Assembly (NCBI RefSeq): GCF_018977255.1
Contig: NW_024704743.1
Location: 17,610,001-17,674,000 of the forward strand
Length of the DNA stretch: 64,000 nucleotides
Origin: Callorhinchus milii
Lineage: Eukaryota
Reading direction: 5' to 3'
This document shows positions 1 to 61,196 of the stretch, one piece after another; positions within the stretch are counted from its first letter, which is position 1, and every line of letters starts with the position of its first letter. Under the pieces are notes generated by a model. The model had not been told where the DNA came from. It saw only the letters and a list, made by a program, of their open reading frames with translations, and did not search any database. Position numbers and translations under genes: made by a program.

Positions 1-89
1 GAGGGAGGAGAGAAGAGTTGACACTGTGTATTTATGGGAGAGGGAAATAGAAGGATTGTCACTGTAATAATGTAAGTAATTGTTCTGGG

Positions 90-318
90 TAGGGTGACTC
101 TATCTGGATGAGCAGTGCTCTCAATCCAAGCGATGTACTTTTCGTTGGTTTGAACTGCAGCAGTACCTCAACACACACTCTAGGGTCCCTAATCCTTGGC
201 TCTTGTCAACCTGCTTCTAATGCTTTCCGAAATTAGGTAAAAATGTGGAAGTCTAGTTTGGATACTTTTAAGCGTAGCAGTGGGTTTCCCCATGTGTCAG
301 AGACATGAGACTGAAACA
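90..318 (+). mobile_element. Unclassified retroposon family X, decayed 3' part with an internal deletion
   Basis: Shares blocks such as ACACACACTCT..CCTTGGCTCTTG.CAACCTG, GTTTGGATACTTTTAAGC and CATGTGTCAGA with the reverse complement of 19548-20170 and 60540-61117. Confidence 0.7.
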
Positions 319-439
319 AGTTTGTAAACTCTTGCATGTGTCGATGTGCACACTGCTCTGGGTCGCATGTGCCATTGCAACAAGTTGCCTACTGTCTGAG
401 CACTGCAGAGATCAGTGGTAAGGTCATGTGCATCTGGCT

Positions 440-4528: not shown

Positions 4529-7155
4529 GTTCCAATCCCTTCCCAAAAGGCCAAGCAAATTATAAGTTCCTGGATCTTGGCCATTTCTTCTATTAAACTA
4601 ACTGCTAGGAAATGCATTAAATAAAGCTTTCTAATTTCAGTTCCTGGGCTTGGCTTACACCTAGTTTCTATGATACAAATGCACAGCAGAGACCTTGAAT
4701 CACAATTAAATCACAAGAGATGGATGATGTAGCAAGTGTATAAAGGAAGCTACATTGTTGGGGGATAGGAGATTGATGACATTGTGAGCATGTGATCAAG
4801 GATGGATATTGGGTACTACAACAACAACTTGTATGGTATGATATAATGTAGGATAACAAGTCAGAGCACATAATGATGAGGTTGCGTGCTGAGCAATGGG
4901 GAGGGGTAACTGTGGAGGTGATCATAATTGCAGGTGAAGGTTTTAAGGCAAGATTTAAAGACGGAGAGAGAAGGCAAGACAGAGGGGTAGAGGGAGGGAG
5001 TTCCAGAAGTTGGGGACAAATTAGTTGAGCTGATATGAAGAGTCTGACCCCAAAATGTTGAGTATCAACTGGATGCTGTTACGGAACTGAGTCATATGAA
5101 TATTATGTTGTTTCTATTTTTAGTGGAAGCAATTCAAACAAAAAATATTCTCTCTTTATTTCCTTATTAAATAAAAATAAATATTTAAAAAGCAGCATGA
5201 ATTGTCACAAAAACCAAGCCAGTAGACACTGTAATTCAAGAACCTAAACTTTCTTTGTTCCACCAACCTAGTTAGTTTCTTGTAGAATGATTTAGGTTAA
5301 TTTAATGATGCATTTTAATTGATTGTTTGGAGCACCGTGGTCAGTTTAGAGGCAAAGAGTGCGTTTGAGAAGTCCAGATGGGATGTGACAAAAGAATATC
5401 TGAGTCTGATCAGATAACTAACAATTAACAACAAAATGATTGAGTTATGGTCAACCTCGTGAATGGAGATACAGTAATTATCATATTACTGTGCATATTT
5501 CAATGCTTCTGGCAGGTTTGCTTCTCTAATACAATATATTTTTCTTCCAATATTGTCCTCTGATTTTCAAATATAAATTCTGTTCTTGTCATAGTCCAGT
5601 AAAATTAAGTTACCCTATGTTGAGATGTAGTTTTCTATCAATGTATTATGTTACGTCTTTTTTATTTCCATTGATATTTTTCCGTAAAAGTATGTGCAGT
5701 GTTTTAGACTGATACTGTGCTTTGCGAACTCAAAGTGGGTAGACCTGGCTCTCTGAGCTCCCATATCCTAGTGTCCACACATATTCATATGATGTGAACT
5801 CCAAAGGTGAAGTTTGAATGGTTTGTACACATTACACAAATCCGTAACACAGTAGTTCATCTCCATTTTGTAATATATCAGACAGAATTAATATTTATGA
5901 AATATTAATGAAATCTATTGATGAAACATTAAGTTAGTAGTGACTCATTCCTTGTGTTGACAATGGAGACAGTATAGTGCCTATCAGTGGAGCCAAGTAC
6001 GATTGTGTGTGTTGATCCCAAACTCTTAAGCGGTGGTTTTTGAAATGTTCTAGTGGCTGTGAATGAGATACCATTGGCAGCAATGAATTAGCGTTTCTTC
6101 CTTTCCATGCCTGAAACTGAGGAAGATTCTCTGTAGCTTGTAGTCAGTGAGGTAACAAGTGCTTGCTACAAATCTTTAGTACAAATATATAAAGCATTAT
6201 TTGATTGCGCCTTAAGCACTGCATTTTTCAGTTAAAGTCCTGATTATTCACTTCTGTGTTCAATATATGATGAATGTTTGATTAATATGTTATTTATATA
6301 GTCACATTTTCTTGAAAAATGAAGGACGGTGAGGCAGAGCCTATGCATTTTAGGAATAATAAAAACAGTTTTGGGCATCGCCTGTGCCAATAAAAAAGTG
6401 CAGACATTTTTGCAAAAAAATTGCAGAACACTTGGCAAATCTTGTGGGTTAGGGTCTTGCAGAGGGCTTTGCTGAAAATGCAGGAAAATTGCAGGGGTTG
6501 GTTGGTGCGATTGAGGTACATATTTGTGACCATCAGTGCAAATCAAATGCAAGGATTATTATTTTACTGCTACATTTTTGCAATTATTGATTAAAAACTA
6601 AACATAAAGAAATTATTATTGCAAAAAAAATATTAATTGCTTCCTTAACAAAAACTGGGTGGCGAACATCTGCGAGGCTACAGGAGCTCACCACCTCCTG
6701 CCTCTCAGGACCGCCCGCGCACAGACAGAAAGACCCAAAGAGAGAGACACACACTCAGAGACACAGAGAGTGACACGCAGGCTCAGAGACACATTCTCAG
6801 AGAGACACACACAAAATGTATGCAAAATGTAATTAGATTTAATTCAATTGAGGGATAAGGTTTGATGGCAATGTGAGCTTTTGTCAGTCCTGAATTTTAT
6901 TGTGTTCTTATGAGAAAAATATTTTTCTTTCTTTTAATTTAAAATAATTTACATTTGGTATAGCACCTTTCACGTTGTGAGGACGTTTCAGAATATCTGT
7001 GAAGCGACTATGTATGTTGTGGGTGAACATGGCAGCCAATTTGTGCACAACAATTTTCCACAAACAGTTAAGAAGTGATTGACCAATTTTGTTTTGGTGA
7101 TTGTTCAACATCATATTACAGAGCAGTTCCCCAAACTTTATACAGTATGTTTATA

Positions 7156-8568
7156 CCCTCGAATCTCTCACACTACAGTCCCATTTCCAACCTACTCTTT
7201 CTTGCCAAAGAGCTGGAACGCATTGTTGCAGGTCAACTTCGGTCACACCTCTCCCTCCTCGAGCCTCTGCAGTCTGGTTTTCGCCCCACCCACAGCACAG
7301 AGACAGCGCTTGTCAAAGTCGCAAACGACGTCCTCTCTATCTGTGATTCCCTCTGCCTGCTTGGCCTCCTGGATCTCTCTGCTGCGTTTGACACAGTCGA
7401 CCACGCCATCCTCCTCCACCGCCTCTCCTCCCTCATCCACCTTTGTGAGACTGCACTTGCATGGTTCGAGTCCTACTTAACCAACTGCATCCACTTGATC
7501 TCGGCAAATGGTTTCTCCTCCCACCCTGCCCAGTTACCTGTGGGGTACCCCAGGGCTCCAATCCTTGGCCCTCTTCTTTTCCTCATCTATATGCTCCCTC
7601 TTGGCAATGTTATCTGCAGACATGGGGTAAACTTCCACATGTACGTGGATGACACACAAATCTACTTCGGCTCCTCCAGTACCAACTCCAGGTCCGTCGA
7701 TGTTCTATCAGTTTGTCTGGCAGACATCATGGCCTGGATGAGTGTAAACATCCTGCAGCTGAATGGGGACAAGATGGAAGCCATACTCTTTGGCTCCCGT
7801 CAACGTTTTCACTCCTGTCGAACTCCTTAACCTTCCTTGGCTCTCCCTCAGACTCACGAACCAGTGCACAATCTAGTTATCCAGTTCGACCCCCAGCTGT
7901 CCTTCCTTCCCCATATCTGGTCCCTGAGCAGGACCACCTTCCTCCACCTCGATCACATTGCCCGCCTCTGACCATACCTTACTCCAAATGCAGCCAAAAC
8001 CCTCGTTTGTCACCTCCTGCCTGGATTACTCCAATGCATTTCTCGCTGGTCTCCCCAGCTCCACTATTCAAAAAATCCAGCTCATTCAAAACTCTGCTGC
8101 CCACATACTTACCCGGACCAAACTTCGTATTCCCATCTCACCAGTTCTGGCCAGGCTCCACTGGCTCCCCATCACCAAACAGATCGACTTCAAGATCCTC
8201 ACACTCGTGTTCAAATCCATTCACTCCCTGGTACCTCCCTACCTCTCTGACCTCCTCACTCCCCAATCCACAACCTGGCACCTCTGCTCGATTGGCACCT
8301 GCTTGTCTCTCGCACCCTCTGACCCACCATTGGAGGTCGCGAATTCAGCCACTACGCCCCGAAACTCTTCAACACTCTCCCTCAATCTCACCACCTTGCT
8401 GCTTCTCTTCCCTTTTTCAAGTCCCACCTGAAAACCTTCCTTTTGAACCGTGCTTATGGACACCTCCGACCCCTCACCCAACCCGGCTCGGAGTCAGGCT
8501 CCACCACTGTTAAGTGTCTCAGATGCTATGCTGCATGGAGGGTGCTATAACATTGCAAGTTGTTGTTG
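7156..8568 (+). mobile_element. L2 LINE (tail type B), 5'-truncated, RT domain to 3' tail, with frameshifts and stops
   Basis: RT motifs PISNL..LAK.LE, QSGFRPTHSTETAL, LLDLSAAFDTVDH, ILGPLLF.IYM and HMYVDDTQIY. C-terminal LDYSNA..LQ/IQNSAA..LHWLPI..IDFKIL. The (TTG)n tail ends at ~8568. Confidence 0.95.
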
Positions 8569-8655
8569 TATGCATGATTTATTATCAAATTTGTTATATC
8601 AGTTTGCATAGTGATTATGAAAGGAGGAAAGTGTGCACTTCACGCCTAACACTAA

Positions 8656-17277: not shown

Positions 17278-17692
17278 ATGCCTGGCTCAATTACTAGCAC
17301 TCTCACGTCTGGGTTACAAGATTACTGGGCTCAAACACTACATTGGTACTTTGAGCTCAAAGTCTAGGTTACCAATTCAGTGTAGTGCTGGGGGAAGTGT
17401 TTCATTGTTAAAAGTGCCATCTTTCGGATTAGATGTTATACTGAGGTTGTATCTGCCTATTCAGGTGTATCTTAAAGATCCCATGACACTATTCGAAAGA
17501 GAAGGGAATTTCTCCTGTTGTCTTGGATAACAAGTTTCCCCGATTCATTCACTTCTGCTGACAGCGGGGCACTCTGCATGCATATTGGCTGCTTTTGTCA
17601 CCTACAAATATAGGCATTTTACAGAAATTGCCCATGAAGAGCTTTGAGACTTCTTTATGTTATAAGTTATATTAAATGCAAGGATTATTATT
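17278..17692 (+). mobile_element. Deu-domain SINE (family D), full length but decayed
   Basis: GCCTGGCTCA head, GTGCCATCTTTCGGAT..AAAGATCCCATGACACTATTCGAAAGAG core and AAATGCAAGGATTATTATTA tail. Confidence 0.85.
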
Positions 17693-19547
17693 ACAGTATA
17701 ATGCAAATAAACAAAATGTTATTTTTTTACAAATGACGGCGATAAAATATCACCCTAGTTTGGGTGCCCAAAATATATTGATTACTATGATTGGGATAAT
17801 TGTGGGTATCATGTTCATGTTTTAAACCATGACTTATCTAGTGCAGTAACCATGGTCATTCTAAGAATAAATCAACAAGAACAACAATGAAAGTAACTTT
17901 AGGATTCTTACTTGTACAATTTATTCACCCCACCATCGGTAGCCAGGCTTTCAGCCATTCTGCCCCTTCTGTCTGAAACTTTATCCTGGAGTCCCTTTGA
18001 CTCTCACACTATCCTCTTTCAAGACATGCCTCAGAAACATAGCCCTTTGACTGTGCTTTTGGTCAACTTTCCCCTTCCCACCCACCTTGATTCCCACACC
18101 TAGTTTGGGTGCCCATCCAGGACTGTGAATGTGCTTTGGGACGTCCTCCCAATGTGAAAGCCACTATGTAAATTGTGTTGTATTGTTCAGAGAGAGCAAT
18201 GTATAACTTTGAAATACGTTTGCTTCATATTGATTGATGAATACTTTGAAAGGTAACAATAGGGTGATATCAACTAGGTAAGTGGAAGGACAATGAGTAA
18301 AATCCCCGTACTTTATTATTTAAGTCATTTTGCCAGAAATATCTGTAGAATAATAATGACATATACTGTCTTGTTGACTATCTCCCTCTCTTTATTTATA
18401 ACAATTCTGTGCCAAATACATAAATTAATGAGATTACCAGATTGTGCAAAATCTTCGTCAAGGCTGTTGTACATTTAAATCATTGATGATATTTGTGACT
18501 CTTCATTTTCTTTGTGTATCTGGGTTAGACATTGTTTTCAGCATGCTGTGCAAACTGACTTGCGGAGTGGGAAAAGATAGTTCATTAGCCCGGACATGCT
18601 TACCCTAGAAAGCTAAATTTGGAATTAAAAATAATTTGTACTGCTTAGATTTTATGTCAAGATTAGTTACGTGCAATACCCACCTATTCTGGAATGGAGT
18701 AAAGCAGGATAGAGAATAGAGAAAAAAACGAGCCCATTCAATCAAGGAGTGAGGGATGAACAAAAAGAAGGAATAAAAAAAATTGGTCATGTAATCCATG
18801 ACAATTTGTGTTCACTTGGCTGCTGCATTTCGTTCACAAAATACACAGTCAATCCACTTTACAATATATTCTGTGAAGCTCTTCGAGATGTCTCAACAAC
18901 GTGATATGACGCTATATCAAATGCAAGGATTATTATTATTTTTAATAAAATCTTAGAGCAACGATAGAGCAAAGAAGCTAGGACTGAAATGAGAAGAGAA
19001 GCAAACAGAGATAAGGAATGAAACAGAAGAGAATCAAACAGAAATGAAAACGCAGAGAAAGAGAGAAATTGGGCAAAAATCCCATTATAATTTGAGATCA
19101 ATATTTTCATGTTTGTAGAAAAACAAGAGGATGAGCAGTTAAAAGAACTTATAGTTAAAATTAAGAATTGTTTTTAAGAACTTGCCAAATTCTGCATTCT
19201 CAGAAATACTAAGAAAATAGAGTAAATCTAGACTCAGGTGAAATTTTTTCCTTATAGAATTTGAATTCCCCTGTCTCTCGCATATTGATTGCATCCTTTT
19301 ACCTTTTTAAAAAAGAGATTAATGCCATCATGGTATTGGGATGCGGCCTAGCATTTGTATATTTAGCGCTGGAGGCAGCATTTGAGTGCTGCGTTACACA
19401 ATATTGACTGAATTAAGTCTGCATCCTGTTTTTAGTTGCAATAAATGTCGATCTTTGCAATCAGGAGCGGCGTCAGAGTAGACAAATGCCCTAGCACAAC
19501 CATCATTCTGCCAAAGTCATAGGGGAAGTCCTGCTTCAATTATGGAG

Positions 19548-20170
19548 TTTTTTTTGGGTGTCTGACACATGCGGAAATCCATCACCATGCTTAAGAGTAT
19601 CAGTATCCAGATCAAACTGAGATTTCCATGCATCCCACCTACACATGGAAATTCCAGAGATAGATTGTTGGAATGGAGTACGCACTCTCTCCCTGGAGGG
19701 TTGCATCATGTTTATCCAATTCCAGAAGGTATTAGGCACAGGTTGGCAAGAGCCAAGGCTTGGGGAGTCCAGAGTGTGTGTTAGACTACTGCTGGAGTCT
19801 AACCAGCTAAAATCGCATAGCTTGTCATTGATATTACTGTCCGGCAACCTTTCCTGCTGCTTGTCCAGCTAGGACCAGCCTATCCATTAGACCTTTGGCT
19901 TGCAGGGTTAGCAGGAGCTAAATGGGAATGACTCCCTGCCCTCAGTGACTGGTATGCCCTTCCAGGTCCTGCCGATGTGCCAGGTGTTGTCATCAGCAGT
20001 GCCCTGGGATATTGCCAACCCGCCCGCTCAGGAACCGGACTGCGGAGACCACCTCAGAGGGCTGGCCCAATTCGTTGCCAGGCATGTCACCTTGGATCCA
20101 GTTTAGCTCCAAGGAGACCGCACTTACTCCCCACCTTCCCTCCACGTCCCCCCCCCTCCACCCGATGATA
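19548..20170 (-). mobile_element. Unclassified A-tailed retroposon family X, most complete copy, with a 10-bp target-site duplication
   Basis: AATTATGGAG at 19538-19547 and at 20171-20180. T8 at 19548-19555 is the A tail on the minus strand. The body is colinear with 60540-61117, 59169-59727 and 24562-24815. Confidence 0.85.
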
Positions 20171-21032
20171 AATTATGGAGGCCGGCGTCATACTTTAATG
20201 GGGGGGACTGTAGAGTTGCTATTCTGGAAGAATGAGATTAAATGTACCAAAGGGCATTCCTCAGCTGAAACTCTTCAGAAGATCACAAGATTGGTTTTAG
20301 AGCCCCCTTCATCCCATTTAGTCTTTTCCTTCCAGAGTACCCTAATCTATTGTCTTCCTAGCACATCATCAATCCATTTCTCAAATATTTCACCTGGAAT
20401 TATTATTTTGGATTTACTTTTCCAAGTAAATTTGATATCTCCTTTCAGGAATGCAGAACTCAAGCTTATCTAATTGTTAATCGTAGCTTATTTCTTTAAC
20501 ATTGGGGATCATCCTCCTTGCTTGCCTCTATATTATTATTGTTATTATTATCTTTGCTGATAAATTTGTCAGGATGAGTTCAATGTGCTTTAAGTGATGA
20601 ACCAACCAGATTTTTACTGACATCTCCCTTTCCCTGAACCTGCAGTGGCATTAAAGCAGTAGATAAAGTGACCAACTCTACTACATGCATTGCTGTACGA
20701 ATGGAAGAATGTTATCGAATACAGTATCCCCAAATCACATGATTTAATATGTTTATTCTGGTGGTTCAGGTGATTTGGAAATGTAACTTGGAGCAGCTTA
20801 GCGTTTAAGTTGTTAGCGATGGACAAATAATAGATCTCGAATATAGGGGCCAGCAACAAGATGCTGTGAAATTACCTTACGCATTATGCCTTTAATAACT
20901 GGAACATCTGAGGAAAAAACATTCTCTAAATACTCACATATGCATTTAATGACTTCAGGGAAATATACAGAGATTGTCTTCAATCAAGGCTATGAGATGG
21001 TTCAGGCCAAGCTTGTGCTATTCATGTAGAAC

Positions 21033-21331
21033 GTGGAATCCTGTAGCTCAGTGGTTAGAGCACTCGCCTCGCAAGCGAGAGACCTAGGTTCGATTCCCGG
21101 CAGGGTGAAACTTGGGCAAGTTTCCTTACTCCACATGTCTGATAATAATCCCTCAAGAAAAAAAACAATAATAAATTGGTCACTTCAATCTACAACTGCT
21201 GTGCGCAATTGGCTGCTGTGTTTTTCCCACAAATATACAGTCAATTCACTTTACAATATATTCTGTGAAGCGCTTTGAGATGTCTAGAAGACGTGAAAAG
21301 CACTATATCAAATGCAAGGATTATTATTATT
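21033..21331 (+). mobile_element. SINE family A, short subfamily lacking most of the central domain; near-intact tRNA-like head at 21037-21108
   Basis: A box TAGCTCAGTGG and B box GGTTCGATTCC. The sequence jumps from CTTACTCCACATG to GATAATAATCCCTC and ends in a (TTA)n tail. Confidence 0.92.
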
Positions 21332-23097
21332 AATATTCAAGCTCTTCAAAGAGAGATGGGAAATTCCAGGGCAGAATGGGTAGTAACCCACTTATTCTAG
21401 ATGACACTCAGGAAAAAAAAGAAAAGTAACTGCAATCACCTTGATACCGAAATAAGCACCTTTGTTTTCCAACACAGAATTATTAATGTTTTATTGAACT
21501 GTCACAAAAGAAGTCGATAGAAAGTATCATTGAGATGCTTAAAGCCATCTGCCCATTAGTGCCTGGAGAATCTGCAGGCCAGTGTATTCCAGTTAACATT
21601 GAGATAAATGGCTGGAAGAACTGTGCTGATATCCTGAAGATGTTAAAATTTAAGGTTCACTTCTAGTATCATACAGAATATTTAGTAATACTCTGGCACT
21701 TTTTGATAGGAACCCAGGAGCTATTCCAGGGCTTTACTTATTCTATGAGGGCCAGGGGTCTTTAGCCTGTGGAATATTTATTTTGCCCACAAAATATACA
21801 GTCAATTCACTTTACAGTATATTCTGTGAAGCGCTTTGAGACGTCTCGAAGATGTGATAAGGTGCTATTTCAAATGCAAGGATTATTATTAATATTATTC
21901 GTCGGTAGGCTTTAACCGTTTTTAATTATCAAGTTCATATGGAGAACTGGATTGCACTTCCACTTCAAAGCATATTTTGTGAAGCGCTTTGAGACGTCCT
22001 CTCGACGTGAAAGAAGCTACATCAAATATAACGATTATTATTATGGTTCAATCCCTCCATCTTGCCTCCTCCTTCAGATTACACCAGAAAACCTTTCTCT
22101 TTGACTATGCCTATGGTCACCTCCACCCCTCCCCAGCTCAGTGTCCAGCTCCACCACTATTAAGCAGTCTGAGACGCTACCCCACATGAACGCCGCTATA
22201 TAAATGCAAGTTGTTATTGTATTATTATAATATATAAAACAATAACAGGTTGTACACCAAATGTGTATGTTTGCAATCAATGCATCCCACTTCAAAATTA
22301 AATGTCTAAGATCCTTAATCCGATGTTCAGATCTCCTTATGATTTGCCCTTCCTTGCCAATGCAATCTCCTCAAACCTTTTTCTCCTACTTGTACTCTCT
22401 GCTCGTCTAATTTTGGTCTATTGTTTGTTCCTCATTCACTCTGTCCTTCCATTTGTGCTACCCTTTTAGTCACAACTCCCCTGCCTTCTTGAATTCCTTT
22501 CTGAGACTTCTTTGCCTCATTTTCTCTTGGCTTTCAAAACCCTCCTAAAAATACCTTTGACTGTTCCTTTAGTCAGTAATCATTTATCCTTGCTTAATGT
22601 GCTCCAGTATATATTTTTAAGTGTATCAAGGCATTCATTCTCTCTGGAATTCCATCCCAGAGTCCCTCGGACTTGCTCCCTTCCTGTTTTTAAGGCGCGT
22701 CTTAAAACATACATCTTTAACTGTGGTTTCAGGCATCTTTCCCTTTCCCAACCTCCTCAGCTTGGATGCCTATCCAGCACTGTGATGCGCTTTGAGACAT
22801 CCTCCCAAAATGAAAGACGCTATATAAATGTAAATTGTATAGTATTGTTTTCTCCAAAGTTGGTTTCTCCATTAGTTACTAACTGTTGATTAACATGTTA
22901 GGGAGGAGTGGGTCTTCCATTGGCTTCTTAGACATTTCATTCCAGAAATAATAATATTGGCTTCCCAAAATTACCCAATTCAAGCTTTACCATATTCAAA
23001 AGCGTTTTACAGTAAATTACCATACTGTGTTTACTCAAACCTAAGGCTCAGTTTTTTTTCATTAGAGTACCTCAAGATCCGAGGGTTGTTTTAATCC

Positions 23098-23398
23098 TAA
23101 TCCTTGCATTTGATATAGTGCTTTGCATGTTGGGAGGACGTCCCAAAGCGCCTCACAGAACACACTGTAAAGTGAATTGACTGTATATTTGTGGGCGAAC
23201 GTGGCAGCCAATTGCGCACAGCAATGTCCCACAAACAATTGTGACCAATTTATTATTTTTTGGGGGGGTTTTGGAGGGATTATTATTAGGCGCGTGGAGT
23301 AAGGAAACTTGCCCGAGGTTTCGCCCTCTGCCTGGAATTGAACTCAGGTCTCTCGCTTGCAAAGCGAGTGCTCTAACCACTGAGCTACAGGACTCCAC
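23098..23398 (-). mobile_element. SINE family A short subfamily with an L2A-type tail loop
   Basis: Nearly identical to 39963-40274. The tail contains GGGAGGACGTCCCAAAGCGC. Confidence 0.92.
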
Positions 23399-23764
23399 AA
23401 TAAACAATTTTAATAAAAACACAAATTATATTCATACTTGCATTTGATCTAGAACTGTATCACGTCATCGAGACGTCTCAAAGCGCTTCACAGAATATAC
23501 TGTAAAGTAAATTGATTATATATTTTGTGGGCAATATGTGGCAGCCAGTTGCATATAGCCATGTCCCACAAACAGTCGTGGATTGCGTGACCAAATTCTT
23601 ATTTTTTAAAACGTATTTATTTTTAGAATCAATGGCAGCCTAGAAATGCAGTATAATCCTTTTGTATCCCCAAACTCTCGAGTATCTCTGCGTCTTGGAT
23701 TGGGGGCACCTTAGATTCAAGTTAATTTGTTAAGTTTTTTTTTGTAGGCAAATGCAGTAATTTA

Positions 23765-24530
23765 GGTGTCAGCCTGAATCAGTTGATAGCGCTTTTGCCT
23801 GTGGGTCAAAAGGTTGTGGGTTCAGGCCCCGCATTGGGACTTTGCACACTTGGTCTAGGCTGACACCCACTACAGTGCTAGGGTGTGCTGTATTAGTGGA
23901 GATGTCATCCTTTGATGAAATGTTATACAGAGATCCAGGTGCCTTTTCAGGTGGACATTAAAGATCCCACGACACCTTTCGAAAAGAGAAGGGAGTTTCT
24001 CCTCGAATTCAAGATCCTCATCCTCACCTACAAGGCCATTCACAGCCTTGCTCCCTCCTACCTCTCTGACCTACTATCCCCCTACCTACCTGCCCGTACC
24101 CTCCGTTCCTCTGGCTCCGGTCTGCTCCACATCCCCCGCCCCAACCGCCCTACCATTGGTGGCCGGGCTTTCAGCCTCTCAGCCCCGAGGCTCTGGAACT
24201 CCATCCCCCAGTGCCTTCGCCGCCTCCTCCCTTTCCTCCTTCAAGGCCGGTCTCAAGACCTTTCTCTTTGACCGTGCCTTCAGCTCACCTCTTGACTCTC
24301 TACCCGCTCCTCGCTCCCTCCCTTCCCTCCCCTCACCCTGACCATTTCCCCCCTGCTCGGGTCCTGACCCAACTGTACAGCGCCTTGGGACGTCCTCCCG
24401 ATGTGAAAGGCGCTCTATAAATGCAATCTTGTTGTTGTTGTTGTTGTCTTGGCCAAGAATCCCACAAATAAAATTGTTCATTCACTTCATGGCTGTTTGT
24501 GAGGCATTGCTGTGCAAATTAGCTGCCGAT
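23765..24530 (+). mobile_element. Deu-domain SINE interrupted by a young L2 insertion
   Basis: The head and Deu core run to GAGAAGGGAGTTTCTCC (24002). The SINE resumes at CTTGGCCAAGAATC (24448). Confidence 0.85.
24003..24447 (+). mobile_element. Young L2 (tail type A) 3' fragment
   Basis: EFKILILTYKAIHSLAPSYLSDLLSPYLPARTLRSSGSGLL..GGRAFSLSAPRLWNSIP. Stem-loop GCGCCTTGGGACGTCCTCCCGATGTGAAAGGCGC followed by (TTG)n. Confidence 0.95.
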
Positions 24531-24561
24531 TAAAAGTGCACAGCTTCCCATTGAAAACACT

Positions 24562-24815
24562 ACTCCTTGTCCAGCAAGGACCACTCTGCCCATGAGGGCT
24601 ATGGCTTCCAGGTTAACAGGAGCTGAGCGGGGAGAATTCCTGCCCTCAATTCCCCTTCAAGTCCTGGCAATCAGTCAGGATGGCTGGTCCTGGAATATTG
24701 TAATCCTGCTTGCCTGGCTCAGGAACCAGACTACAAGACCATGAAATAAGATTGACTTGATTCCATAATTCCGTTGCTAAGCATGTCACATTGGAGCCAG
24801 TTCAGCTCCCAAGAC
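24562..24815 (-). mobile_element. Family X, 5' half
   Basis: GGTTAACAGGAGCTGA, GGCTCAGGAACCAGACT and CATGTCACATTGGAGCCAGTTCAGCTCC are shared with the other copies. Confidence 0.75.
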
Positions 24816-25075
24816 ACCTCCAGAAAAAGTATATATTAGACACACGTTTGTGTTCACCCGACTTAAGTTCTAAAAGAAACACTTTGTGTTTTGTCACCCA
24901 TAATGTAGAAAATATAAATTATTTGAGAAGTTTTTGATGAAAAGAGATTTTTGTTGAACGAATACAAGTAACAATATGAATTGTACTTAAAAGATTTTTC
25001 TGCATGTTATTACTCAGGCAGAATCTGTTCCTCGGTTTTAGTTCCAAATATATAAATTTCATCTAAATATTTGAT

Positions 25076-27038: not shown

Positions 27039-30000
27039 CCCCAATCTTGGAGGTGAAGGACAACCCCAGACTCCTGTTCCCCACCACCGGCTCCTCCGTC
27101 CACCCTCCCACGCCTCGCCCATTCTCTCCTCAAGCACTGACTGAGGAGATGCTGGATTTCTTCAAGTCCTAAATTGAGGGGATCCGTTCAGCTGTTTCCG
27201 CCCTCCCATCCGCCCCCACCTCCCCACCACACTCCGACCCCTACTCATCCCTCCCTCCACATTTTCAAACCTGTCTCCCCCTCCTCTCTCATCACCACCA
27301 TATCCAGCATGAAACAGACCACCTGCTCCCTTGACCCCATCGCCACCCCTATCCTTACCTCCCAGCTCCAATTTCCTCGCTCCTCTACTCTCTTTCCGTT
27401 TCATCTGGCACTGTTCCCATCCCACTAAAAACACCTACAATCACCCCCATCCTGAAAAAACCTTCACTGGACACATTCCTGCCTTCTAACCACTGGCCCA
27501 TCTCCAACCTTCCTTTTCTTTCCAAGGTCCTTGAAAGAGTCATTGCATCCCAGCTTCGCTCATTCCTCTCCTACCACTCCCTTCGCGAGCCCCTCCAATC
27601 GGGTTCCCGTGCTGCTCAAAAAATGGAAACTGCTCTGGTCAAGGTGACAAACGACATCCTGTCCATTTGTGATCAGAGCTCCCTCTGCCTCCTCATCCTC
27701 CTCAACTTCTCTGCTGCCTTCGATACCATGGACCAGTCAGTCCTCCACAGCATTGCCTCTCACCTCAACCTTCAAAGTTCTGTCCTTGAATAATTCAGAT
27801 CTTATTTCTCACACTGTCTCTAATTTGTCTCTGCCAACGGTTTCTCTTCCAGCCTCCACACAATCTCGTGTGGTGTTCCTCTGGATTCTGTCCTCGGTCC
27901 CCTCCTCTTCAACTTCTACATGCCCCCTTGGTGACATCATCCACAGACAACTTCCATATGTATTCGTTTGACACCAAACTCTATCTCTCTGCCTCCACCC
28001 TCGACTCCAGGACATCCTGGAGTTGAGGGTGACGTCCTGACTTTCTACAACTGAATGTCAGCAAGACTGAGGCCTTCCTGGTTGGCTTGCACCAGTGCCT
28101 CAGCACCTCAGGCACTGGCAGCATCAGCATCCACGGTTGCACACTCCACCTCACCAAACCAGTCAGGAACCAGGGCATCTTGTTCGACCCTCAACTATCC
28201 TTTCTCCCCCGTATCCGTGCCATGACCCGCTCATACACGCAGTTGTCACCTTAAGGCTCGACTACGGAAACTCCCTTCTTGTCGGACTCCCCAACTCTTC
28301 CCTCCACAAACTGCAGCTCGTGTCCTCTCCCATACCAGGCTCCATGACCCCATCAACCCAGCCCTCGCCCGGCTCCACTGGCTCCCCATCCATCAGAGGA
28401 TAGAATTCAAAATCCTCGTCCTCACTTTCAAGGCCCTCCATGGCCTTGTCCCCTCCTACATCTCTGACCTGCTGACTCCCTATCAACCTGTCCACTCCCT
28501 CCGCTCAGCGGGACCCGCCCAACCTGCCCTACCATCGGTGGCCGGGCTTTCAGCCTTTCTGCCCCCACTCTTTGGAACTCATCAATCCCTTCGCCTTGCT
28601 CCCTCTCGCCTCCTTCAAGGCACGACTCAAGACCGTCCTTTTGGACTGTGCCTTCAGCCACTCTCCTACCCCCTCTGCCCTTCCTCATCCCAACCCACAC
28701 TTGGGTCCTGATCCCTGGCTGTCCAGCGCCTTGGGACGTCCTCCCGCCGTGAAAGGCGCTTTACAAATGTAATTTTGTTGTTGTTGTTGCTCACCACTAC
28801 CTGATCCAAGTTGTGGGGCTTTTCATGTTAGGGTTTCTTGCTACTCAATTTTGAATCACTTTTTATGCAGTTGATATGGAAACCGTAGGGGTTACCAATT
28901 GATTTAGACCAATGTCACTTTTGAAATGTGCAGGTTTTACTTCACTTTATGTTATTGTTATTTATTTGTTATGTTATATGTTATTGCTCAAGTGCAGAGA
29001 CTGCAGAGCATCATACATTCTCTTCCTCCTCCCTGCGTCCACACTTTAATTAAATAAAAATCCACTGCATCATCTCCTCTTCCTTCTCTCTCAGGACATC
29101 AAACCTTGTCCTCCATCCTAACATTCTTAAGCTTAGCAGTGCACTGTACTATAGTTTCTCTATAAAAAAGAAATCCTCTGTTTTTGTGTTCTAGATTTGT
29201 AATTTATTTGGTTTCTGTAGTCTTAAAGCCCTTCTGAATTTCTGTGCACAATGATCATTAAGGACAGAATCTTGCTCATGCTAACTGTACAAGGATAAAA
29301 ATCAAGCTGTAAATGAAACTTAACCTGCTACAAGATGTTGGTATCAAATTACCTGAAATATATCTCCTGTCGAGGGTACCTTTGGGGAAAATATTTGACA
29401 ACAAATAAAAGCATGTGATTTTTGTTAAGAAAATCGGAATATAATGATACAAGAAATATTTAACAAGTATGTTTTGAAGATTTAATTATATGTTGGTCTC
29501 ATATTCAGAGTGGAGTTGAAATTATTCTGGAATAAATTCTGCTCTGTGTAAATCTGAATTCTTATCAATTCAGAATGCAACATCATGCGCTCATTAAATT
29601 AGGCTCCAATATAGTGGAAGAAATCCAGCTCCTTCACTCCAGCTAAGCATTGTAAAATATTCACGATTCTGCCGCAGTGCATACCATGCTATAGATCATT
29701 ATGCAGTCTCTTTAGAAGAAGCTAGCCTAGCCATTTTACTTACAGCCTGAACACTGTATGTTTTTTTCCAGTTTACATTGTGATTTATTTTCCATTCAGG
29801 TGTTTAAAGCATGAAGATTTCTTAACATTCTTTCATAAGGAAGATTGTAGGTTTAAAAAAAGAAGTGCGAAGAACATTGTTGTTTCCTACGCCGCCCTAT
29901 GGTGCTTATAAGTATCCCGTTATAAAGATGCAACAAAAAGATATCTGTTTAAATAATATGCGTATGATAGAACCCTATCGAGATTGTGGTTTGTGCTTGC

Positions 30001-31568: not shown

Positions 31569-31933
31569 GTAGAGTCCTGTAGCTCAGTGGTTAGAGCATT
31601 CGCCTCGCAAGTGAGAGACCTGGCTTTGATTCCCGGCATGGCGAAATGCTGAGCAAGTTTCCTTACTCCACACACCTCTGTTTACCTAGCAGTAAGTAGG
31701 AACTCAGTTGTTAGTCAATTAGCGCATCACTTTTCCGGGGATAATAATCCCTCAAGAAAAAAAGAAATTTGGTCAATCAATCCACAACTGTTTGTCGGAC
31801 ACTGCTGTGCACAATTGGCTGCTGCATTTCACCCACAACTATACAGTGAGTTCACTTTACAGTATATTCTGTGAAGCGCTTTGAGACGTCTAGAAGACTT
31901 AAAAAGTGCTATATCAAATGCAAGGATTATTAT
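31569..31933 (+). mobile_element. SINE family A, full length
   Basis: Complete head, central domain, body and tail. Confidence 0.92.
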
Positions 31934-31961
31934 ATCTGCACTATTACTAATGACTGCCTTA

Positions 31962-37860: not shown

Positions 37861-39049
37861 ACGGGGCGGCTAAATACATTTGCACCTTTGTACTGAGTAT
37901 AATTAAGGACAGTGGAGGGGGGTTTCATCCAAACCAATACTTCATCAAAATTATGAGGGGTTTTGATGAAGTAAACAGAGAAATTGTTTCCATTGGTCAG
38001 TGAGTCAGTAATTAGAGGGCGTAGATTTAAGATCAATATTAAAATATAATAATAAATAATAATAGAATAATAAGAGCAAAGGAGAAATGCAGTTAGGAGA
38101 AATGTGCTTACACATAGTGTTGTTAGGACCTGTAAAATCCTACCTAGAAAGGTGGTTGAGACAGAATCCGTATTAGATTTTTAAGAGGGAATTACATAAC
38201 TACTGTATTTGAAAAGGACAAATACAAACTGGTCTGGGGAAAAGGCAGGATAATAGGACTAAATGGGTAACTCTTTCAGAGTCTCTAGCTCTTTCAGATA
38301 GCCAGCAAAGACAAAATGGGCTGAATTCTGTGCTGTTAGATTTTTGTGTTTCTATGTAATATTTAGCACAGCTATTTCTTTTTTTATTCTCTACTTTGGT
38401 AAAAAGAGTAGGAAGGAGTAGGATGTTTCTGGTGCTCCTTTGGAGAATGTCATGTCAGGTCTTTCTGTTACACACTGGAACCATGCCTATGCAGAAGGGA
38501 GCCAAGGGAGCCACTTAATACTTACTAGCTGACAAGAAATCCTTTTACAGGCACTGAATACTATTAAACAAAATCTATACTGGTCTTGAGAAATCACCAC
38601 AGTATTGATTGAATTTTTCCAAGAGATACTGTTGCTGAATCTACTTCCTGACCTAAGCCTTAGTCTGTAAGACTTTTATTTTATCTTAAAATTTAAGATT
38701 GTGGAAACTTCTTAAATTCTGCCTTAATTTAGAAGTTGGTTCTTTTTAAGAACCGTAGAAAAGAAATAGCTTCCAAATTACAACTCAAGTAAACAATTTT
38801 CCATAATTTAAAATTTTAAGAGAAAACTGACTTTCAGACTAAGTCTAGGTGGAATTTGGGGGCATCTAATCAGCTATTAAAGGTTACAGCAAGAAAAACA
38901 ACAACTTGCATTTACATAGCGTATACGTAGTGTGCTGGGGATCTTGACAGTGGTGGAGTCTGACCCCGAGCCAGAAGGAGGGGGAGGTGACTGTAAGCAC
39001 GATCAAAGGAGGTCAAAGGAAGGTCTTTGGGTGGGATTTGTTATTAACA

Positions 39050-39229
39050 ATTCTGCGGAATTAGGTAAGCAACCTGCGCCCCTCCAGAAAGAGAGCGTGC
39101 ATTCCATTTCATACATGGGAATTTGCATGTGTAGGTGGGATACACAGAACTCTTAGTCTGGTTTGGGTACTCTTTAAGTGTAGTGATGGTTTTTTTGAGT
39201 GTGGCAGACACCAAGCTGACCAAAATAAA
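39050..39229 (+). mobile_element. Family X, 3' fragment ending GCTGACCAAAATAAA
   Basis: GAATTAGGTAAG, CATGTGTAGGTGGGA and GCAGACACCAAGCTGACCAAAATAAA. Confidence 0.75.
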
Positions 39230-39661
39230 CCTTATAAATGCGGAGAACTGGAGGAGAATACATGAGTTTTTCCATAAAAAGAAAGGGATTCTGGAGTCAA
39301 TGTCAAATGTTAACTGACATCATATAAAGAATCAAAATACTCCATTTTCTCTCAGTGGTTTAATGCTTTTAATAATATAAGAAGAATCCTTGCATTTGTA
39401 GGAATCTCTTTACCGTAGGTGTTTTTGTGAGTAACTGCAATAATCCCAGATATTCCCAAATCCTGAGATTATCTGTAATTTTGTAACAGAAATATAACAA
39501 AAGGTAAAATCTTATAGTGCAGCATTGCTGATTAAAATAAAGCACTGCATTATAATTTCTGGATAATCGTAGGATCCCATGTATTTTATATGGATTCCTA
39601 TTTATTTTACGTAAAGTACATGCAACACTATAATTACCTTCTTTATATTTATCTTTGACTA

Positions 39662-39962: not shown

Positions 39963-40274
39963 ATAATAATCCTTGCATTTGATATAGCGCTTTTCACGTC
40001 GGGAGGACGTCCCAAAGCGCTTCACAGAACAAACTGTAAAGTGAATTGACTATATTTGTTGGCGAACGCGGCAGCCAATTGCGCACAGCAATGTCCCACA
40101 AACAGTCGTAGATTGAAAATGACCAATTTTATTATTGTTTTTGGTTTTGGAGGGATTATTATTAGGCGTATGGAGTAAGGAAACTTGCCCAAGGTTTCGC
40201 CCTCTGCCTGGAATTGAACTCAGGTCTCTCGCTTGCAAAGCGAGTGCTCTAACCACTGAGCTACAGGACTCCAC
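39963..40274 (-). mobile_element. SINE family A short subfamily with an L2A-type tail loop
   Basis: Full head with a TGC anticodon-like loop. The tail reads GCGCTTTTCACGTCGGGAGGACGTCCCAAAGCGC. Confidence 0.93.
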
Positions 40275-41260
40275 AAGACTGTTGGCCCTCAATTCTTGCC
40301 GTGGAGCAGTAGAAAGAACGCTTCAAAGCACATGCTTCACCGTCTGTTCTCAGAGGTCATCTGTTGTAAAACAAAAGGCTCTAGATAATATTTTCATATG
40401 AATTTACAGTGAAGTGGCTGTACAAGACAAGGTGTGAGTGAATACAGCAGCTAATATGTACACAGCAATGTCCCACAATTGAAGTGGATTGAGATGTCTT
40501 GCGATGTGTTAAGGCATTATATCAAATGCAAGGATTATTATTGTTTTGAGTAGTTGTGTTATATATTCTCAATCTTATTTTCATTTTCAGTCCCCTCTCT
40601 TGGATTTTAATGTCTTCACAACATACAAAGTTACTAATATTGAAGCGGGTTGTCTCACGACGACCAGAATTGTGTACAATACTCGAGGTGTGGGCTACTT
40701 CAATACAACTTCTGCTGATGTCATATGTAAAATGAACTATATTGCATCCGATTTTAATATTTAACTTGTTTTGCTCCAACGCATAGTCTATGGTGATTAC
40801 CTTCCAATGCTAAAGTAAAACTCCTAAACCAAAGTGTGAACTTGCAACAGTTCTAATTAGTTTGTTTTGGCTAATTAAATGGAGCGCTGCTAAATAATAG
40901 ACTTAATAATAATAATCCTTGCATTTGATATAGTGCTTTATCACATCTTTGAGACATCTCAAAGCGCTTTACAGAATATACTGTAAAGTGAATTGACTGT
41001 ATATTTTGTGGGTGAAACGCGGCAGCCAATTGCGGACAGCAGTGTCCCACAAACAGTCGTGGATTGAATGACCAAATTATTATTATTAATCTTTTTTTTC
41101 ATACATGTTCATCATACCTGAGTTATAAGAAATTTGAAATCTGAATGTCTTGAGAAAAATGAACTGAGATTACATGTGGCTTAAAAAAACTTTTTAATAG
41201 AAGAATAACTGTACCTCATTTTCTGCTTTAACTAATGGACTTTATTTTCTTACCTTATAG

Positions 41261-45374: not shown

Positions 45375-45695
45375 ATTTGTTATAGTGCCTTTTGTGTTAG
45401 GAAGATGTCTCAAAGCACTTCACAGGATTTTACTGTGAATTGGAGTGACTGGATTTGTAGATGAACTCGGCAACCAATTTACGCACAGCAGTATCCCACA
45501 AAAAGCCATGAAGTAAATAGCCAATTATATTTGGATGGAACCTTGGTTTAACTTGTCATCCAAACGACAGACCACTGATAATGCAACAACCTCCAGCACT
45601 GTAATGGAGCGTGAGTTTGATTCCCAACTGGGGCTCGAACCCACAACCTTTTGACTCAGAGGTGACAGTGCTACTAACTGTGTCAAGCTGACACC
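45375..45695 (-). mobile_element. Deu-domain SINE with an internal deletion
   Basis: Head CTCGAACCCACAACCTTTTGACTCAGAGG..AGCTGACACC and the shared body. Confidence 0.8.
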
Positions 45696-52119: not shown

Positions 52120-52593
52120 ATAGTAATCCTTGCATTTGATATAGCACCTTTCATGTTGAGAGAACGTCACCAAAGTGCTTCACAAGATTTACTGGGAAGT
52201 GGAGTGACTGTTTATTTGCAGTGAATGCGGAAGCCAATTTGCACATAGCAATGTCCCATGAAGTGAGCAGCCAATTTTATTTGGTCACCGGGAAGAACAC
52301 CCTTCTCTTTTCGAGCAGTGCGTTGAGATCTTTAACATCCACCTGAACAGGCAGACAGACCCTCGGTTTAACCTCTCATCTGAAGGGTGGCACCTCTGAT
52401 GATGGCACACACTCCCAACGTTGCATTGGAGTCTCAGCTTCAATCGACAATGTGAGTTCAAACTACAACAAGATTACATTTGTATAGCGCCTTTCACGTC
52501 GGGAGGACGTCCCAAGGGTCTCAACATGGGGCTTGAACCCACAACCTTCTGACTCAGAGGTGAAAGCATTACTAACTGAGCCAGGCTAACACA
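52120..52593 (-). mobile_element. Deu-domain SINE carrying a ~50-bp L2A tail insert at ~52465-52516
   Basis: Head AACTGAGCCAGGCTAACAC and Deu core. The insert reads ACAACAAGATTACATTTGTATAGCGCCTTTCACGTCGGGAGGACGTCCCAAG. Confidence 0.85.
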
Positions 52594-57137: not shown

Positions 57138-59168
57138 GAAATAGATTTGTTTTGAATTTTTATTAGTATCCAATTTTGTGTGCTCACTCCTGTCTGACTT
57201 GCCCCTCCCTAACCAGTGACTAGTGCTACACCAGGCACTGCCTTTACCCAATAGGTCATCAATGGAACACATCTGCTTGGTTCAGTAGGAACAATTCTTT
57301 TTCCTACCCTATGTTGTTTATTTATCTCTAGGAATAACTAGTGTTCATCAGTAATACATTTGGTAAAAGTTCAAGCTACACAGAAGATAGATATTAAAAT
57401 GAAAGTTAAAAGATTTCATAATTAATTATAACAATTTCAACTCTTTGCATTAAATAGGTTTGAATATTTTGATTTAACCATGGCATCACTGATGAACTGG
57501 CTGGAAATGTTACTGAGCGTAACTATGTGAGAGAACAGAATAGACCTCTGTTATTAACCAAGAGTACTTCACACAGCTTGGCACTTGAACCACATATGTT
57601 TATTCAGCTCCTTCACACAATGGCACAGTCAATCTTTTAAGGCAGTTCCATCAATGATGTCATTAGCAGTCTAAAATAAAATAAATGGAAGTACTGCATT
57701 GAAAGTACATTTTGTGCACAAAAATACAGTCAATTCACTTTACAGTACATTCCTTTGAAGCGCTTTGAGACATCTCGAAGATGTGATAAGGTGCTACATC
57801 AAATACAAGGATTATTATTATTTTTAAAAAACTAGAACTGTTATATATCTATATGATTTAGCAGACATAAGAGTGTAAGAAAGAGCTCACTTGACATGTC
57901 TACTTAAAGAAGCTTTTGGCATTGTCATTCATATTAACATAATATCACCTGCCATATACTTTCACTGTTGCTTTTAACAATGGTCATTAATGATTCTATA
58001 AGCGATGAAGCTTTTAAACTGGTTTCATTTAAGAAAGACATTGAATTTTTTTTATAGTACCGTATCTCGTCAATAACTCTTTTCTGTGAAGTGCAGTTGC
58101 TGTTTTTGTAGGCAAATGCAGTAGCCATGTTGCGCACAGCAAGGTTGCAGATCAATCATTAGGTGAACGACCAATTTATAGAGAGAATTGTTGACCAGAA
58201 CACTGAGAAACTCTCTTCACTTTTCAAATACGGTCATGGGAGCTTTCAGATCCACATGAAGAACAGAAGATGAGACATCAGTTTAACATGTCACTTGAAA
58301 GATGGATGAGGAAAGCTTTATTTCAAATGAAATTCTGCTTTCAGTAATCAGTGAAGGAATGAATAAATCAAGGCATTTATTCACTGGCAGAATGCTGTGT
58401 CAGATTTCAGTGCTGATATTTAGATTTTCTTTTCCATGCTGGAATAAATAGAATGAATACTGGATTTGGATTACAGTTCATAGCTAAGTGCTTTTACATT
58501 AATCTGTTAAAATTAATTTACAAATTTCCCAGTTGCCTATCATTGGCATGCAGTGTACTCTCTTATAGCTTGTAAATATTACGTGGGTTAGTATCACCTC
58601 CAGTTCACATACAGTACAACTGCTAAGCCTGCAAAGATATTCTAGTGTTTTAAGGTAGTTGCCAGATATTTCCTATACTCTCTTGCCTTTCCCGCTGTTC
58701 AGTCTCTTCTTCTCATATACCCAGTAATGGTTACCTTTCTTCTTTCCTCCATAATTTCACTGTTCCTCACAATTCATTCAGCTTTCTACTCTTTGCATTT
58801 TACTTTTACCCAGTTCTCTTTTATATAATAATAATCCTTGCATCTTCCAGACGTGTCAAAGCACTTCACTACTGTAAAGTGAATTGACTGGATGTTTTGT
58901 GGGGGTGAAACGCGGCAGCCAATTACACTCAGCAATTTCAGAAATTGGTTTAGTTGGGTGTAACAAACTAGTAATTTGTGTTATCACTGATGTTGTAGAG
59001 TTGGGAGTTCTTGACATTGACACTGAGTGTAAAAAATCCCAAATGTTTAATCTATGAACATAGATATTCCTTGTCACAACAACAACGCCAAAATTGTACG
59101 ACCCACAATTTTTAATTAAGAAATAAAATCCAGCAAAATGCCCTGACGATATTGAGTCACAAGGACAT

Positions 59169-59727
59169 TTTATTTTGGTCAGCCGGGTGTCTGACACATG
59201 CAGAAACCCATCACCGTGCTTTAGAGTATCCAAACCAAACTGAGAATTTTATACAACCCTCCTCCACATGGAAATTCCATAGATAGATTGTTGGAATGGA
59301 AGCGCACTCTCTCCCCGGAGGGACGCTTCCTACTTACCTAATTCCAGAGATATTAAGTCTTGGTGACCCCATAGTGAGCGTTGGAGCACTGCTGGAGTCT
59401 AATCTAATTACTAGACTAGTCTAATTATTATTATTATTATTATTAATCAGCTTAAACTGAATTGCTTGCCGTTGATATAGCTGTCTGGCAAGCTTTGCTC
59501 ACTGGTTCTCCAGTTGGGACCACCTTACCTGTTAGGGCTTTGGTTTGCACGGTTAACAGGAGCTGAGTGGGAGCCATAGCTGATAATAGTATTAATAATA
59601 ATAATCCTTGCGTGTGTTGTAGTAGTTTTCACAATGGGAGGTGTCTCAATACACTTCACCGGATTTACTAAGGACCAGCTGGCTCAGGAACCAGACTACC
59701 GAGACAACCACGAAAGACTTGCTCGAT
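59169..59727 (-). mobile_element. Family X copy with a (TTA)n expansion and a SINE-tail insert
   Basis: TTTATTTTGGTCAGCCGGGTGTCTGACACATGC..CACATGGAAATTCC..GGTTAACAGGAGCTGA..GGCTCAGGAACCAGACT. Confidence 0.8.
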
Positions 59728-60539
59728 CTTATCTGGTCATTCTCCGTAACTCATCCTTGTAACACAAGGGATCAGCCTTGTTGCTAACCTTTGCTTTGCC
59801 TCTAGGGCATGAGTTAATCTTGTCCATCCTAACCAGATCAGCTTGAGCATGACTTCTGAACACAACTGATTTGATACTATAACCCAGCATCCTGTTTGTC
59901 TTGTTCAATTTGCCTCACACTGGTTAGTAATGGTGAGTGAAAAGGCAATTGACACCCTTAGGTGTTTTTCAGGTTTCCCCCTTGTAAAGTACTGTACAAT
60001 ACATGCAGCATAAGTACCTTCTACTTTCTATATGCAATGCTTTGCATCTATGTGAATTGAGCTGTATTTGTATTAGAATCAAAGAAATTTACAACATAGA
60101 AGAAGATCTGGGCTGGCTCTTTTAGAGAACAGTCCTTTCAATCCCATTTACCTGCTCTTGGCCCATCCCTTACTCCTTTTTAGATACATACCCTGTTGAG
60201 CTCTCTTTTAAGACCTTGGCTCATTCTGCAAAGTGCTTCAAGGCATTTCAGTTCTGTGAAAGGCACTATAGAAATCTAACTTAATGTTGTTGTTTTGGGC
60301 TATCTGGTCTGATTCCTCTGTTCCCCAGAGCTTAGTATCATCTGGGAAACCAGGTCATTTATGAGTACGAGGAACAGGAAGAGTCTCAACACAGTAGTTC
60401 CTCGGATAAAAAAATAATGTGTTCTATATATGCCAAGATAAAAGATAAATATCTTAACTTATGACACTGTCTAGAACACACTTGCGACTGGTTACTTGTG
60501 ATCTACATGTTTGCCCTGAATTGTGGAGCTGTTTATCAT

Positions 60540-61117
60540 TTTTTATTGGTCAGCCAGGTGTCTGACACATGTAACACCCATCACTATGCTTAAAAGTATC
60601 CAAACCAAGCTGAGATTTCCGTGCTTCCCACCTACACATGGAAATCCCAGAGATAGATTGTTGGAATGGAGTGCGCACTCTCTTTGTGGAGTGATGTATC
60701 CTGCTACTTAATTCTGGAGAGTTTTAGCCACAGGTTGGCAAGAGCCAAGAGTTGGAGACCCAGAGTGTGCGTGGGGTTTTGCTGGAGTCTAACCAGCTAA
60801 AACCGCATAGCTTGCCATTGATATTACTCTCTGGCAAGTTTCCCACTGCCAGTCCAGCTAGGAACCCCAGAAGGTTAGGGCTTTGGGAAGGGTTAACAGG
60901 AGCTGAATGGGAGGATTCCCTGCCCCCAGTGACTGGTCTGCCGTTCCAGATCCTGTAAATGAGCCAGTGTGCTGTCATCAGCAGTGCTCTGGAATACTGC
61001 GAACCCGCCTGGCTCAGTAACCGGATTACTGAGACCGTTACAGAGGGCTGGCTTGATTCTGACATTGCATTACCAGACATGTCACCTTGGAGCCATTTCA
61101 GCTCCATACCCCAAGGA
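60540..61117 (-). mobile_element. Family X, near full-length copy
   Basis: Colinear with 19556-20117 from GGTGTCTGACACATG to CATGTCACCTTGGAGCCATTTCAGCTCCA. Confidence 0.85.
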
Positions 61118-61196
61118 GGATAGTTCTAGAAGTCCCTTCGGGCTTTTCGCAATTTATATTTTATGGTTCTTACATGTTTCAGATGCCGTCTCTGAA

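Follow-up and report, generated by a model that had tools for sequence, protein, structure and literature searches.

Family X of Callorhinchus milii: an old, high-copy, A-tailed retroposon that is probably the 3' untranslated region of a LINE

What kind of element leaves behind the non-coding, A-tailed sequence that recurs in a 64,000-nucleotide stretch of the Callorhinchus milii genome (contig NW_024704743.1, positions 17,610,001 to 17,674,000; hereafter the window)? An earlier sequence-only reading had called this sequence, here family X, a retroposon with six copies in 64 kb, and had offered two origins, a non-autonomous element derived from a structured RNA or the long 3' untranslated region (UTR) of a long interspersed nuclear element (LINE). 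An nhmmer profile recovered all six copies at the places and on the strands claimed (87–320, 19548–20111, 24500–24824, 39049–39231, 59168–59741 and 60539–61116), and found no seventh in the window with E < 0.79. The copies are 61–82% identical in pairs, with 81.5% between the two best, and take up 2,487 of the 64,000 bases. Family X is a real, old, high-copy retroposon family. When the two origins are weighed, the LINE 3' UTR is the better and a discrete element the weaker, even though the 5' ends cluster at a hairpin. We consider it probable that family X is the structured, 5'-truncated 3' UTR, ~600 nt long, of a LINE of the elephant-shark lineage that was old and abundant, had a poly(A) tail and belonged to neither L2 nor CR1, with a stop hot-spot at that hairpin.

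The 3' end and the mode of insertion

Four public contig sets (X1, X11, X15 and X5) were aligned to positions 19260–20460 at 80% likeness; X5 may be an RNA run, by a guess alone, and served as no evidence of expression. Matching contigs numbered 34,625 (X1), 24,191 (X11), 25,599 (X15) and 9,456 (X5), and in X1 the depth was ~7 on the unique flanks compared to 125,000–407,000 over the 3' third of the element. Family X is present in the order of 10^4 copies or more, depth itself being no copy number. In all four runs, the loose ends of contigs before 19555–57 read as a T-run of at least 9 and then GGTCAGC, with 116–404 contigs per listed row; the 24 rows listed of 3,293 include no loose ends at the 5' boundary. 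The family-wide 3' end is single and sharp, consisting of GGCTGACC and an A-run of 9–12 nt with no fixed target motif beyond, and the poly(A) tail stands at this fixed end in each run. Inside the window, AATAAA lies within the tail of three of the four ends that keep a GCTGACC-like end, while the contig consensus is a plain A-run; three copies other than that at 19548 do end in GCTGACCAA(AA)TAAA, as had been reported. The terminal GTCAG/CTGAC hairpin described before exists, but it is perfect in only two of the five copies with a 3' end and is absent from the 19548 copy, which is without the last 8 nt, GGCTGACC.

Read in its sense direction, the 19548 copy runs from a target-site duplication (TSD) through 31 nt unassignable to the family, ~21 nt of family sequence, the 5' hairpin, the body and an A8 tail to the second TSD copy (Table 1). 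The A8 tail adjoining one of two perfect 10-bp repeats, AATTATGGAG, was confirmed. A perfect 10-mer in this geometry arises by chance at 34, 54 and 104 of 63,080 window positions for spans of 60, 100 and 200 nt, and the chance of this TSD is 5e-4 to 1.6e-3. The duplication is thus genuine, but it lies 52 nt past the foot of the 5' hairpin rather than at the hairpin. It starts with CTCC, not A, and the flanks beyond five tails have no common motif. Of the remaining four copies that retain a 3' end, none keeps a perfect TSD of at least 8 bp; the 59169 copy has a 7-mer repeat a few bases off its tail, and only the TSD of the 19548 copy is significant. This absence does not argue against retroposition, because a decay of ~10% per copy, as estimated from the 81.5% identity, would leave a perfect 10-bp pair in about one copy in eight.

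Target-primed reverse transcription is recognised by an A-run where the 3' end is fixed, by shortening from one side only and by a TSD. Family X combines an A-run at a sharp 3' end, a fall in cover from 3' to 5', two truncated copies and one TSD, and retroposition by this route, as first proposed, is supported. The site may also be shared with a second organism (organism B), in which the orthologous flanks (30 differences in 233 nt and 21 in 228) lie in two separate contigs that break toward the element, a pattern that a shared insertion would give; among the 15 joints listed of 1,719, none connects the two flanks.

A rolling-circle origin would turn the 10-bp repeat into a coincidence. Helentron/Helitron2-like elements start with a T-run and carry hairpins at both ends, and family X, read on the other strand as a non-autonomous member of this group, has hairpins near both ends and a T-run at one, with a TSD in one copy only. 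The idea is barely plausible given a truncation gradient that is one-sided, a 9–12-nt run at one end only, a TSD chance of at most 0.16% and ends that do not pair as a terminal inverted repeat; in addition, passages of PMC4350176 describe the elephant-shark mobilome as almost all retroelements.

The tail also separates family X from the other repeats. The window copies of L2, CR1 and short interspersed nuclear elements (SINEs) end in (ATT)n or (TTG)n, and no other multi-copy family of such size with an A tail was seen in the window. BLAST found no similarity between family X and these window copies except where a piece of SINE tail has inserted into the 59169 copy. TSD lengths peak at 13–15 bp for L1, 10–12 for RTE, ~12 for Nimb and 3–5 for L2/CR1, according to the part of PMC4245944 that treats them. 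L2 or CR1 LINEs and their SINEs were accordingly rejected as the source, since family X has no short-repeat tail, no common 3' tail and no TSD of 3–5 bp. The placement outside L2/CR1 follows from tail type and TSD length and, with the BLAST result, upholds the statement that no L2 or CR1 tail is present.

The 5' hairpin and the source of the copies

Toward the 5' side, cover at the hairpin is 0.20–0.27 of that at the 3' end in all four runs, about a fivefold fall; the profile, which dips at 19998–20079, is also shaped by likeness to the 19548 copy alone. Two of the six window copies are plainly 5'-truncated, so that variable truncation is found together with the hot-spot at the hairpin. The 5' hairpin itself exists, although its consensus is a composite that is perfect in no copy and is not recognisable in the 59169 copy. 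Mutual similarity among the 19548, 60540 and 24562 copies ends at the hairpin or no more than ~12 nt from it, and the flanks upstream of the 60540 and 24562 copies are mutually unrelated. Three copies had been described as parting just beyond the hairpin; in two copies the family sequence goes on beyond it, to at least 20127 and probably to 20139.

The extension comes from a protein match. Among 1.84 billion representative proteins, family X matched three gene models, P0001, P0002 and P0003 (UniRef A0A4W3GE79, A0A4W3JYL0 and A0A4W3HAU4, all labelled Callorhinchus milii by source), and one bacterial protein (P0004), the last of four matches, which was rejected as chance. Translated family X forms a foreign C- or N-terminal piece on these COPS5, carboxylesterase and ADAM9-like models, and such ends are probably annotation artefacts. 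Aligned by tblastn, P0001 (the COPS5 model) matches the 19548 copy from 20127 onward. The codons of P0001 require a minimum of 1 change in 15 nt (20113–27) and 4 in 27 nt (20113–39), where shuffles average 6.6 and 11.4 (P 3e-4 and 1e-4, with 15 windows tested). No P0001 match was found beyond 20139, and the 60540 and 24562 copies fail in the same upstream-codon test (P 0.12–0.93). These data indicate that the hairpin is no absolute 5' end: some copies enter the G-rich tract, and most stop at the hairpin foot. The tract matches a strict G-quadruplex pattern that has 10 matches in the window and is not rare.

The LINE 3'-UTR reading draws on the clade-specific TSD peaks, on the size and tail of L1 3' UTRs, and on the terminal stem-loop of stringent LINEs. 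Excerpts of PMC5381506 give vertebrate L1 3' UTRs as 148–2,751 nt long, ending in AATAAA and poly(A), with a G tract in mammals; the zebrafish ones average 25% GC and have no G tract. In the sections of PMC5135761 that concern them, stringent LINEs use a terminal stem-loop as their recognition signal. Family X resembles the 3' ends of L1-clade LINEs (vertebrate L1, Tx1) in its poly(A), in AATAAA in three window copies and in a TSD near 10 bp; parts of PMC5381506 and PMC5135761 extend the likeness to 5' truncation, a long non-coding 3' UTR and a G-rich tract as in mammalian L1. L1/Tx1 is the leading clade for the source LINE, as a guess; the single TSD, at 10 bp, compares with an L1 peak of 13–15 bp.

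Several observations weigh against this reading. No reverse transcriptase or endonuclease (Pfam RT/APE) was found in any of the 21 read-through frames around the six copies, whereas an L1/Tx1-clade LINE has an ORF2 with both domains upstream of its 3' UTR, and no ORF2 was seen beside family X. The TSD of the 19548 copy is no L1 TT/AAAA site, as first noted, since it lacks an initial A, and thus departs from the mammalian-type L1 nick site; there is no fixed target either, unlike in site-specific Tx1. Family X has ~52% GC, compared to the 25% of zebrafish L1 3' UTRs in the cited part of PMC5381506. Moreover, its 5' ends pile up at one hairpin, unlike those of L1-clade LINEs: in all four runs, the bin just past the hairpin has 0.031–0.042 of the cover of the hairpin bin, whereas ~46% would be expected if all copies reached 20139, and four of the six window copies end within ~80 nt (P ~0.002 under random exponential truncation). 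A stop hot-spot must therefore be added to the LINE-tail model.

With this addition, a LINE endonuclease would nick the target and the reverse transcriptase would prime on the A tail, perhaps recognising the terminal hairpin. Premature ends of reverse transcription would be frequent and would concentrate at the foot of the 13-bp hairpin that comes after the G-rich tract, so that most long copies would hold only UTR. In the 19548 copy, copying may have run ~50 nt further, and the staggered cut would have left the 10-bp duplication; its last 8 nt may have been lost later between two CC pairs, or priming may have taken place 8 nt upstream.

The same pile-up admits a discrete, headless, non-autonomous retroposon of ~570–625 nt that would start at or just before the hairpin or G tract and be mobilised in trans. 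It would derive from an RTE/Vingi-like LINE, either as a 3' UTR alone or, by deletion, in bipartite form (5' UTR plus 3' UTR). The sharp fall in cover past the hairpin in all four runs, the four clustered ends, the unrelated flanks upstream of two copies and the empty upstream frames all suit such a unit, as do two subfamilies with common diagnostic indels. A 10-bp TSD fits RTE by the peaks in that portion of PMC4245944, and RTE, Ingi, Vingi and R2 are all known to include bipartite non-autonomous members, according to the part of PMC5786205 that covers them. Like Bov-A, RTE-N, Vingi-N, RIME and R2 SIDE, family X has the right size, no head, a near-defined 5' end and a TSD of ~10 bp. Such LINEs have an exact 5' end, often with an HDV-like ribozyme, and a 5' part homologous to the 5' UTR of a partner LINE. 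In contrast to them, family X has ragged 5' ends, inexact over ~80 nt, and no partner LINE or ribozyme match was found for it; its sequence continues beyond the hairpin, and the 5' end gave no ribozyme or promoter match. RTE elements, in a passage of PMC3747384 stated for plants, usually end in short repeats, unlike family X. A discrete unit is somewhat unlikely.

A related proposal is that most long copies did not arise when copying of a full LINE stalled but go back to a self-standing, headless RNA of ~600 nt. This RNA would be the LINE 3' UTR by itself, set free by a processing site or an internal promoter where hairpin and G tract meet, and spread to the order of 10^4–10^5 copies. We regard this as unlikely. 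If true, it would give either a 'UTR-only' non-autonomous retroposon that is neither a SINE nor a bipartite LINE, or a natural case, among the clearest, of a structure-defined stop of reverse transcriptase.

As a LINE tail, family X matters mainly for annotation, being among the larger repeat families of this genome and having entered no fewer than three gene models of Callorhinchus milii, and the clustering of its 5' ends at one hairpin is the sole part worth follow-up. A true reverse-transcriptase stop would offer thousands of natural events for studying LINE 5' truncation, and a true start at the hairpin would mean a headless, UTR-only route to non-autonomous retroposons.

Folding, small-RNA origins and coding content

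The family had been called hairpin-rich. Three stems do exist, but the excess of structure is modest: the global fold z against shuffles is -0.85, -3.26 and -2.55 for three long copies, and RNAalifold on the six gappy copies returned 4 pairs only, with no usable covariation. The local fold z is -0.7 to -3.1 on the sense strand in all six copies; five L2 tails span -2.9 to +0.8, and 25 background tiles average 0.14 with a standard deviation of 1.9. Clustered 5' ends, poly(A) and a TSD, together with six of six copies folding better than their shuffles, two at z ~-3, are what a SINE or retrocopy family of an unrecognised structured non-coding RNA would show. The best copy, however, folds on the antisense strand as well (-4.5 compared to -3.1 in sense), and the L2 tails reach similar values. 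Rfam gave no match to the copies at gathering score, and its E-value mode gave 12 weak rows, all below that score (best E 0.67). No RNA polymerase III A or B box was found in the six copies. The derivation from a structured RNA suggested by the sequence-only reading thus gained no support from Rfam, polymerase III boxes or covariation, and such a source is very unlikely.

Known small RNAs fare no better. No tRNA, 5S or 7SL head was found in family X, tRNA and Rfam searches on the copies being empty, which agrees with the original remark that there is no tRNA head; a SINE with a tRNA, 5S, 7SL or snRNA head was rejected on the lack of such a head and of polymerase III boxes. The copies contain no complete hammerhead core, with one core half-motif in two of six and no partner motif nearby, and a Penelope-like element, which would have a hammerhead ribozyme in a pseudo-LTR, was rejected on this and on the absent Rfam match. 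There was no Rfam ribozyme match at the 5' end, though decayed copies could escape detection.

Family X shows no codon periodicity (P 0.24–0.89), and for the open frame of 133 aa in the 60540 copy there was no notable Pfam match, no PDB match and no usable Atlas match; its only real protein matches are the chimeric models P0001–P0003, and a coding origin was rejected. Protein searches returned no ORF2 ending in family X; one of three word-index searches missed the known positives P0001–P0003 in its length range, which makes such blanks weak. Pattern scans for family X gave 11 metagenome loci, bare 19-mer matches with no wider similarity, and one genome contig locus of 66% GC with a 23-mer only, both rejected as chance, and no viral contig locus. 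No description of family X was found in the open-access literature, Repbase Reports and subscription journals lying outside its coverage, and four family X motifs gave seven matches in paper texts, all unrelated. Family X may well already have a Repbase or Dfam entry. Candidate likenesses to RTE, CRE, Tx1 or gypsy motifs, telomerase RNA and Helentrons found no support in the analysis.

Copies, neighbouring repeats and flanks

Table 1. Features of family X in the window (TSD, target-site duplication; empty cells, no entry)
Feature	Coordinates	Strand	Evidence
TSD, copy beside the tail, AATTATGGAG	19538..19547	+	100% direct repeat
A8 tail, not preceded by the final 8 nt of the family, GGCTGACC (terminal hairpin, 3' arm)	19548..19555	-	
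Body of family X, ~52% GC, non-coding; probable LINE 3' UTR	19556..20118	-	
Internal stem, 14-nt arms 86% complementary, 13-nt loop	19617..19657	-	
5' hairpin (arms of 11 nt, 91%; composite of the copies, ~13 bp); foot is the stop of most genomic copies	20086..20118	-	
Family sequence upstream of the 5' hairpin, firm to 20127, probable to 20139	20119..20139	-	match to copy in gene model P0001
G-rich tract with four-run G-quadruplex pattern; 20140–20170 unassignable to the family here	20129..20163	-	pattern match
TSD, 5' copy, AATTATGGAG	20171..20180	+	100% direct repeat
Copy, 5'-truncated, with internal deletion; ~20-nt deletion in common with the 24562 copy (second subfamily)	85..320	+	nhmmer
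Copy reduced to its 5' half, with the 3' half lost at the start of a SINE	24545..24826	-	nhmmer
Copy, 3' 180 nt only (5'-truncated)	39048..39229	+	nhmmer
Copy with internal SINE/L2-type tail piece (59590–59632) and TAA-repeat insertion; stops before the 5' hairpin	59168..59741	-	
Best-preserved copy: tail, terminal hairpin, end at the foot of the 5' hairpin; TSD gone	60540..61118	-	

All copies in the window are presumably dead fossils. The ~20-nt deletion common to the 90 and 24562 copies points to at least two source subfamilies, and since SINE pieces interrupt two copies, those SINEs are no older than family X. Two copies lie head to tail in the same orientation at 59168–61118, ~800 bp apart; the 59169 and 60540 copies are only 69% alike and are therefore independent insertions.

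The window has 40% GC, is CpG-poor and repeat-dense, and contains tRNA-Ala-headed SINEs, L2 reverse-transcriptase fragments and CR1-type ends, which fits the CmiSINE/L2 landscape of the elephant shark as described in parts of PMC5499810. A SINE with a tRNA-Ala head and a tail of (ATT)n, which agrees with CmiSINE, stands at 21037–21330, 23092–23400, 31569–31935 and 39963–40276, with many further fragments, and SINE sequence makes up 10,388 of the 64,000 bases. A second, older tRNA-headed SINE with the same tail (56476–56916, 23764–24002, 17280–17539, 52283–52595 and 45536–45700) is probably SacSINE1-CM, going by its description in that portion of PMC5499810. After SINE, L2, CR1 and family X had been masked, this second SINE and CR1-type ends were the remaining multi-copy families among those inspected. 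CmiSINE (SINE2-1_CM, tRNA-Ala/CORE), SacSINE1-CM and the partner L2-2_CM, as far as PMC5499810 describes them in those parts, share with family X the kind of genome and a comparable density; unlike the two SINEs, family X has no tRNA head, no common L2 tail and no short-repeat tail. Zenon, of the CR1 group, is likewise poly(A)-tailed in cartilaginous fishes according to a passage of PMC13343379.

The window looks intergenic or intronic. No host-gene domain was found among its 150 longest stop-to-stop frames, although short exons would escape; Pfam gave no family for 142 of these (with 8 others, the 150 longest of 161 frames). L2-type LINE fragments with a reverse-transcriptase domain lie at 7072–8570 and 27335–28790 (Pfam RVT_1, E 2.7e-22 and 1.3e-4). 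Beside the 19548 insertion, the X1 run of the same organism has 26 extra bases at 19526 and one extra base at 20346, both indel polymorphisms. Finally, a second, lower-copy repeat occupies 20203–20340 just beyond the TSD, with a depth of 500–1,900 at 20203–20284 compared to 7–50 on the flanks; it contains a 25-nt inverted repeat (20220–44 and 20315–39) and is possibly a decayed miniature inverted-repeat transposable element.

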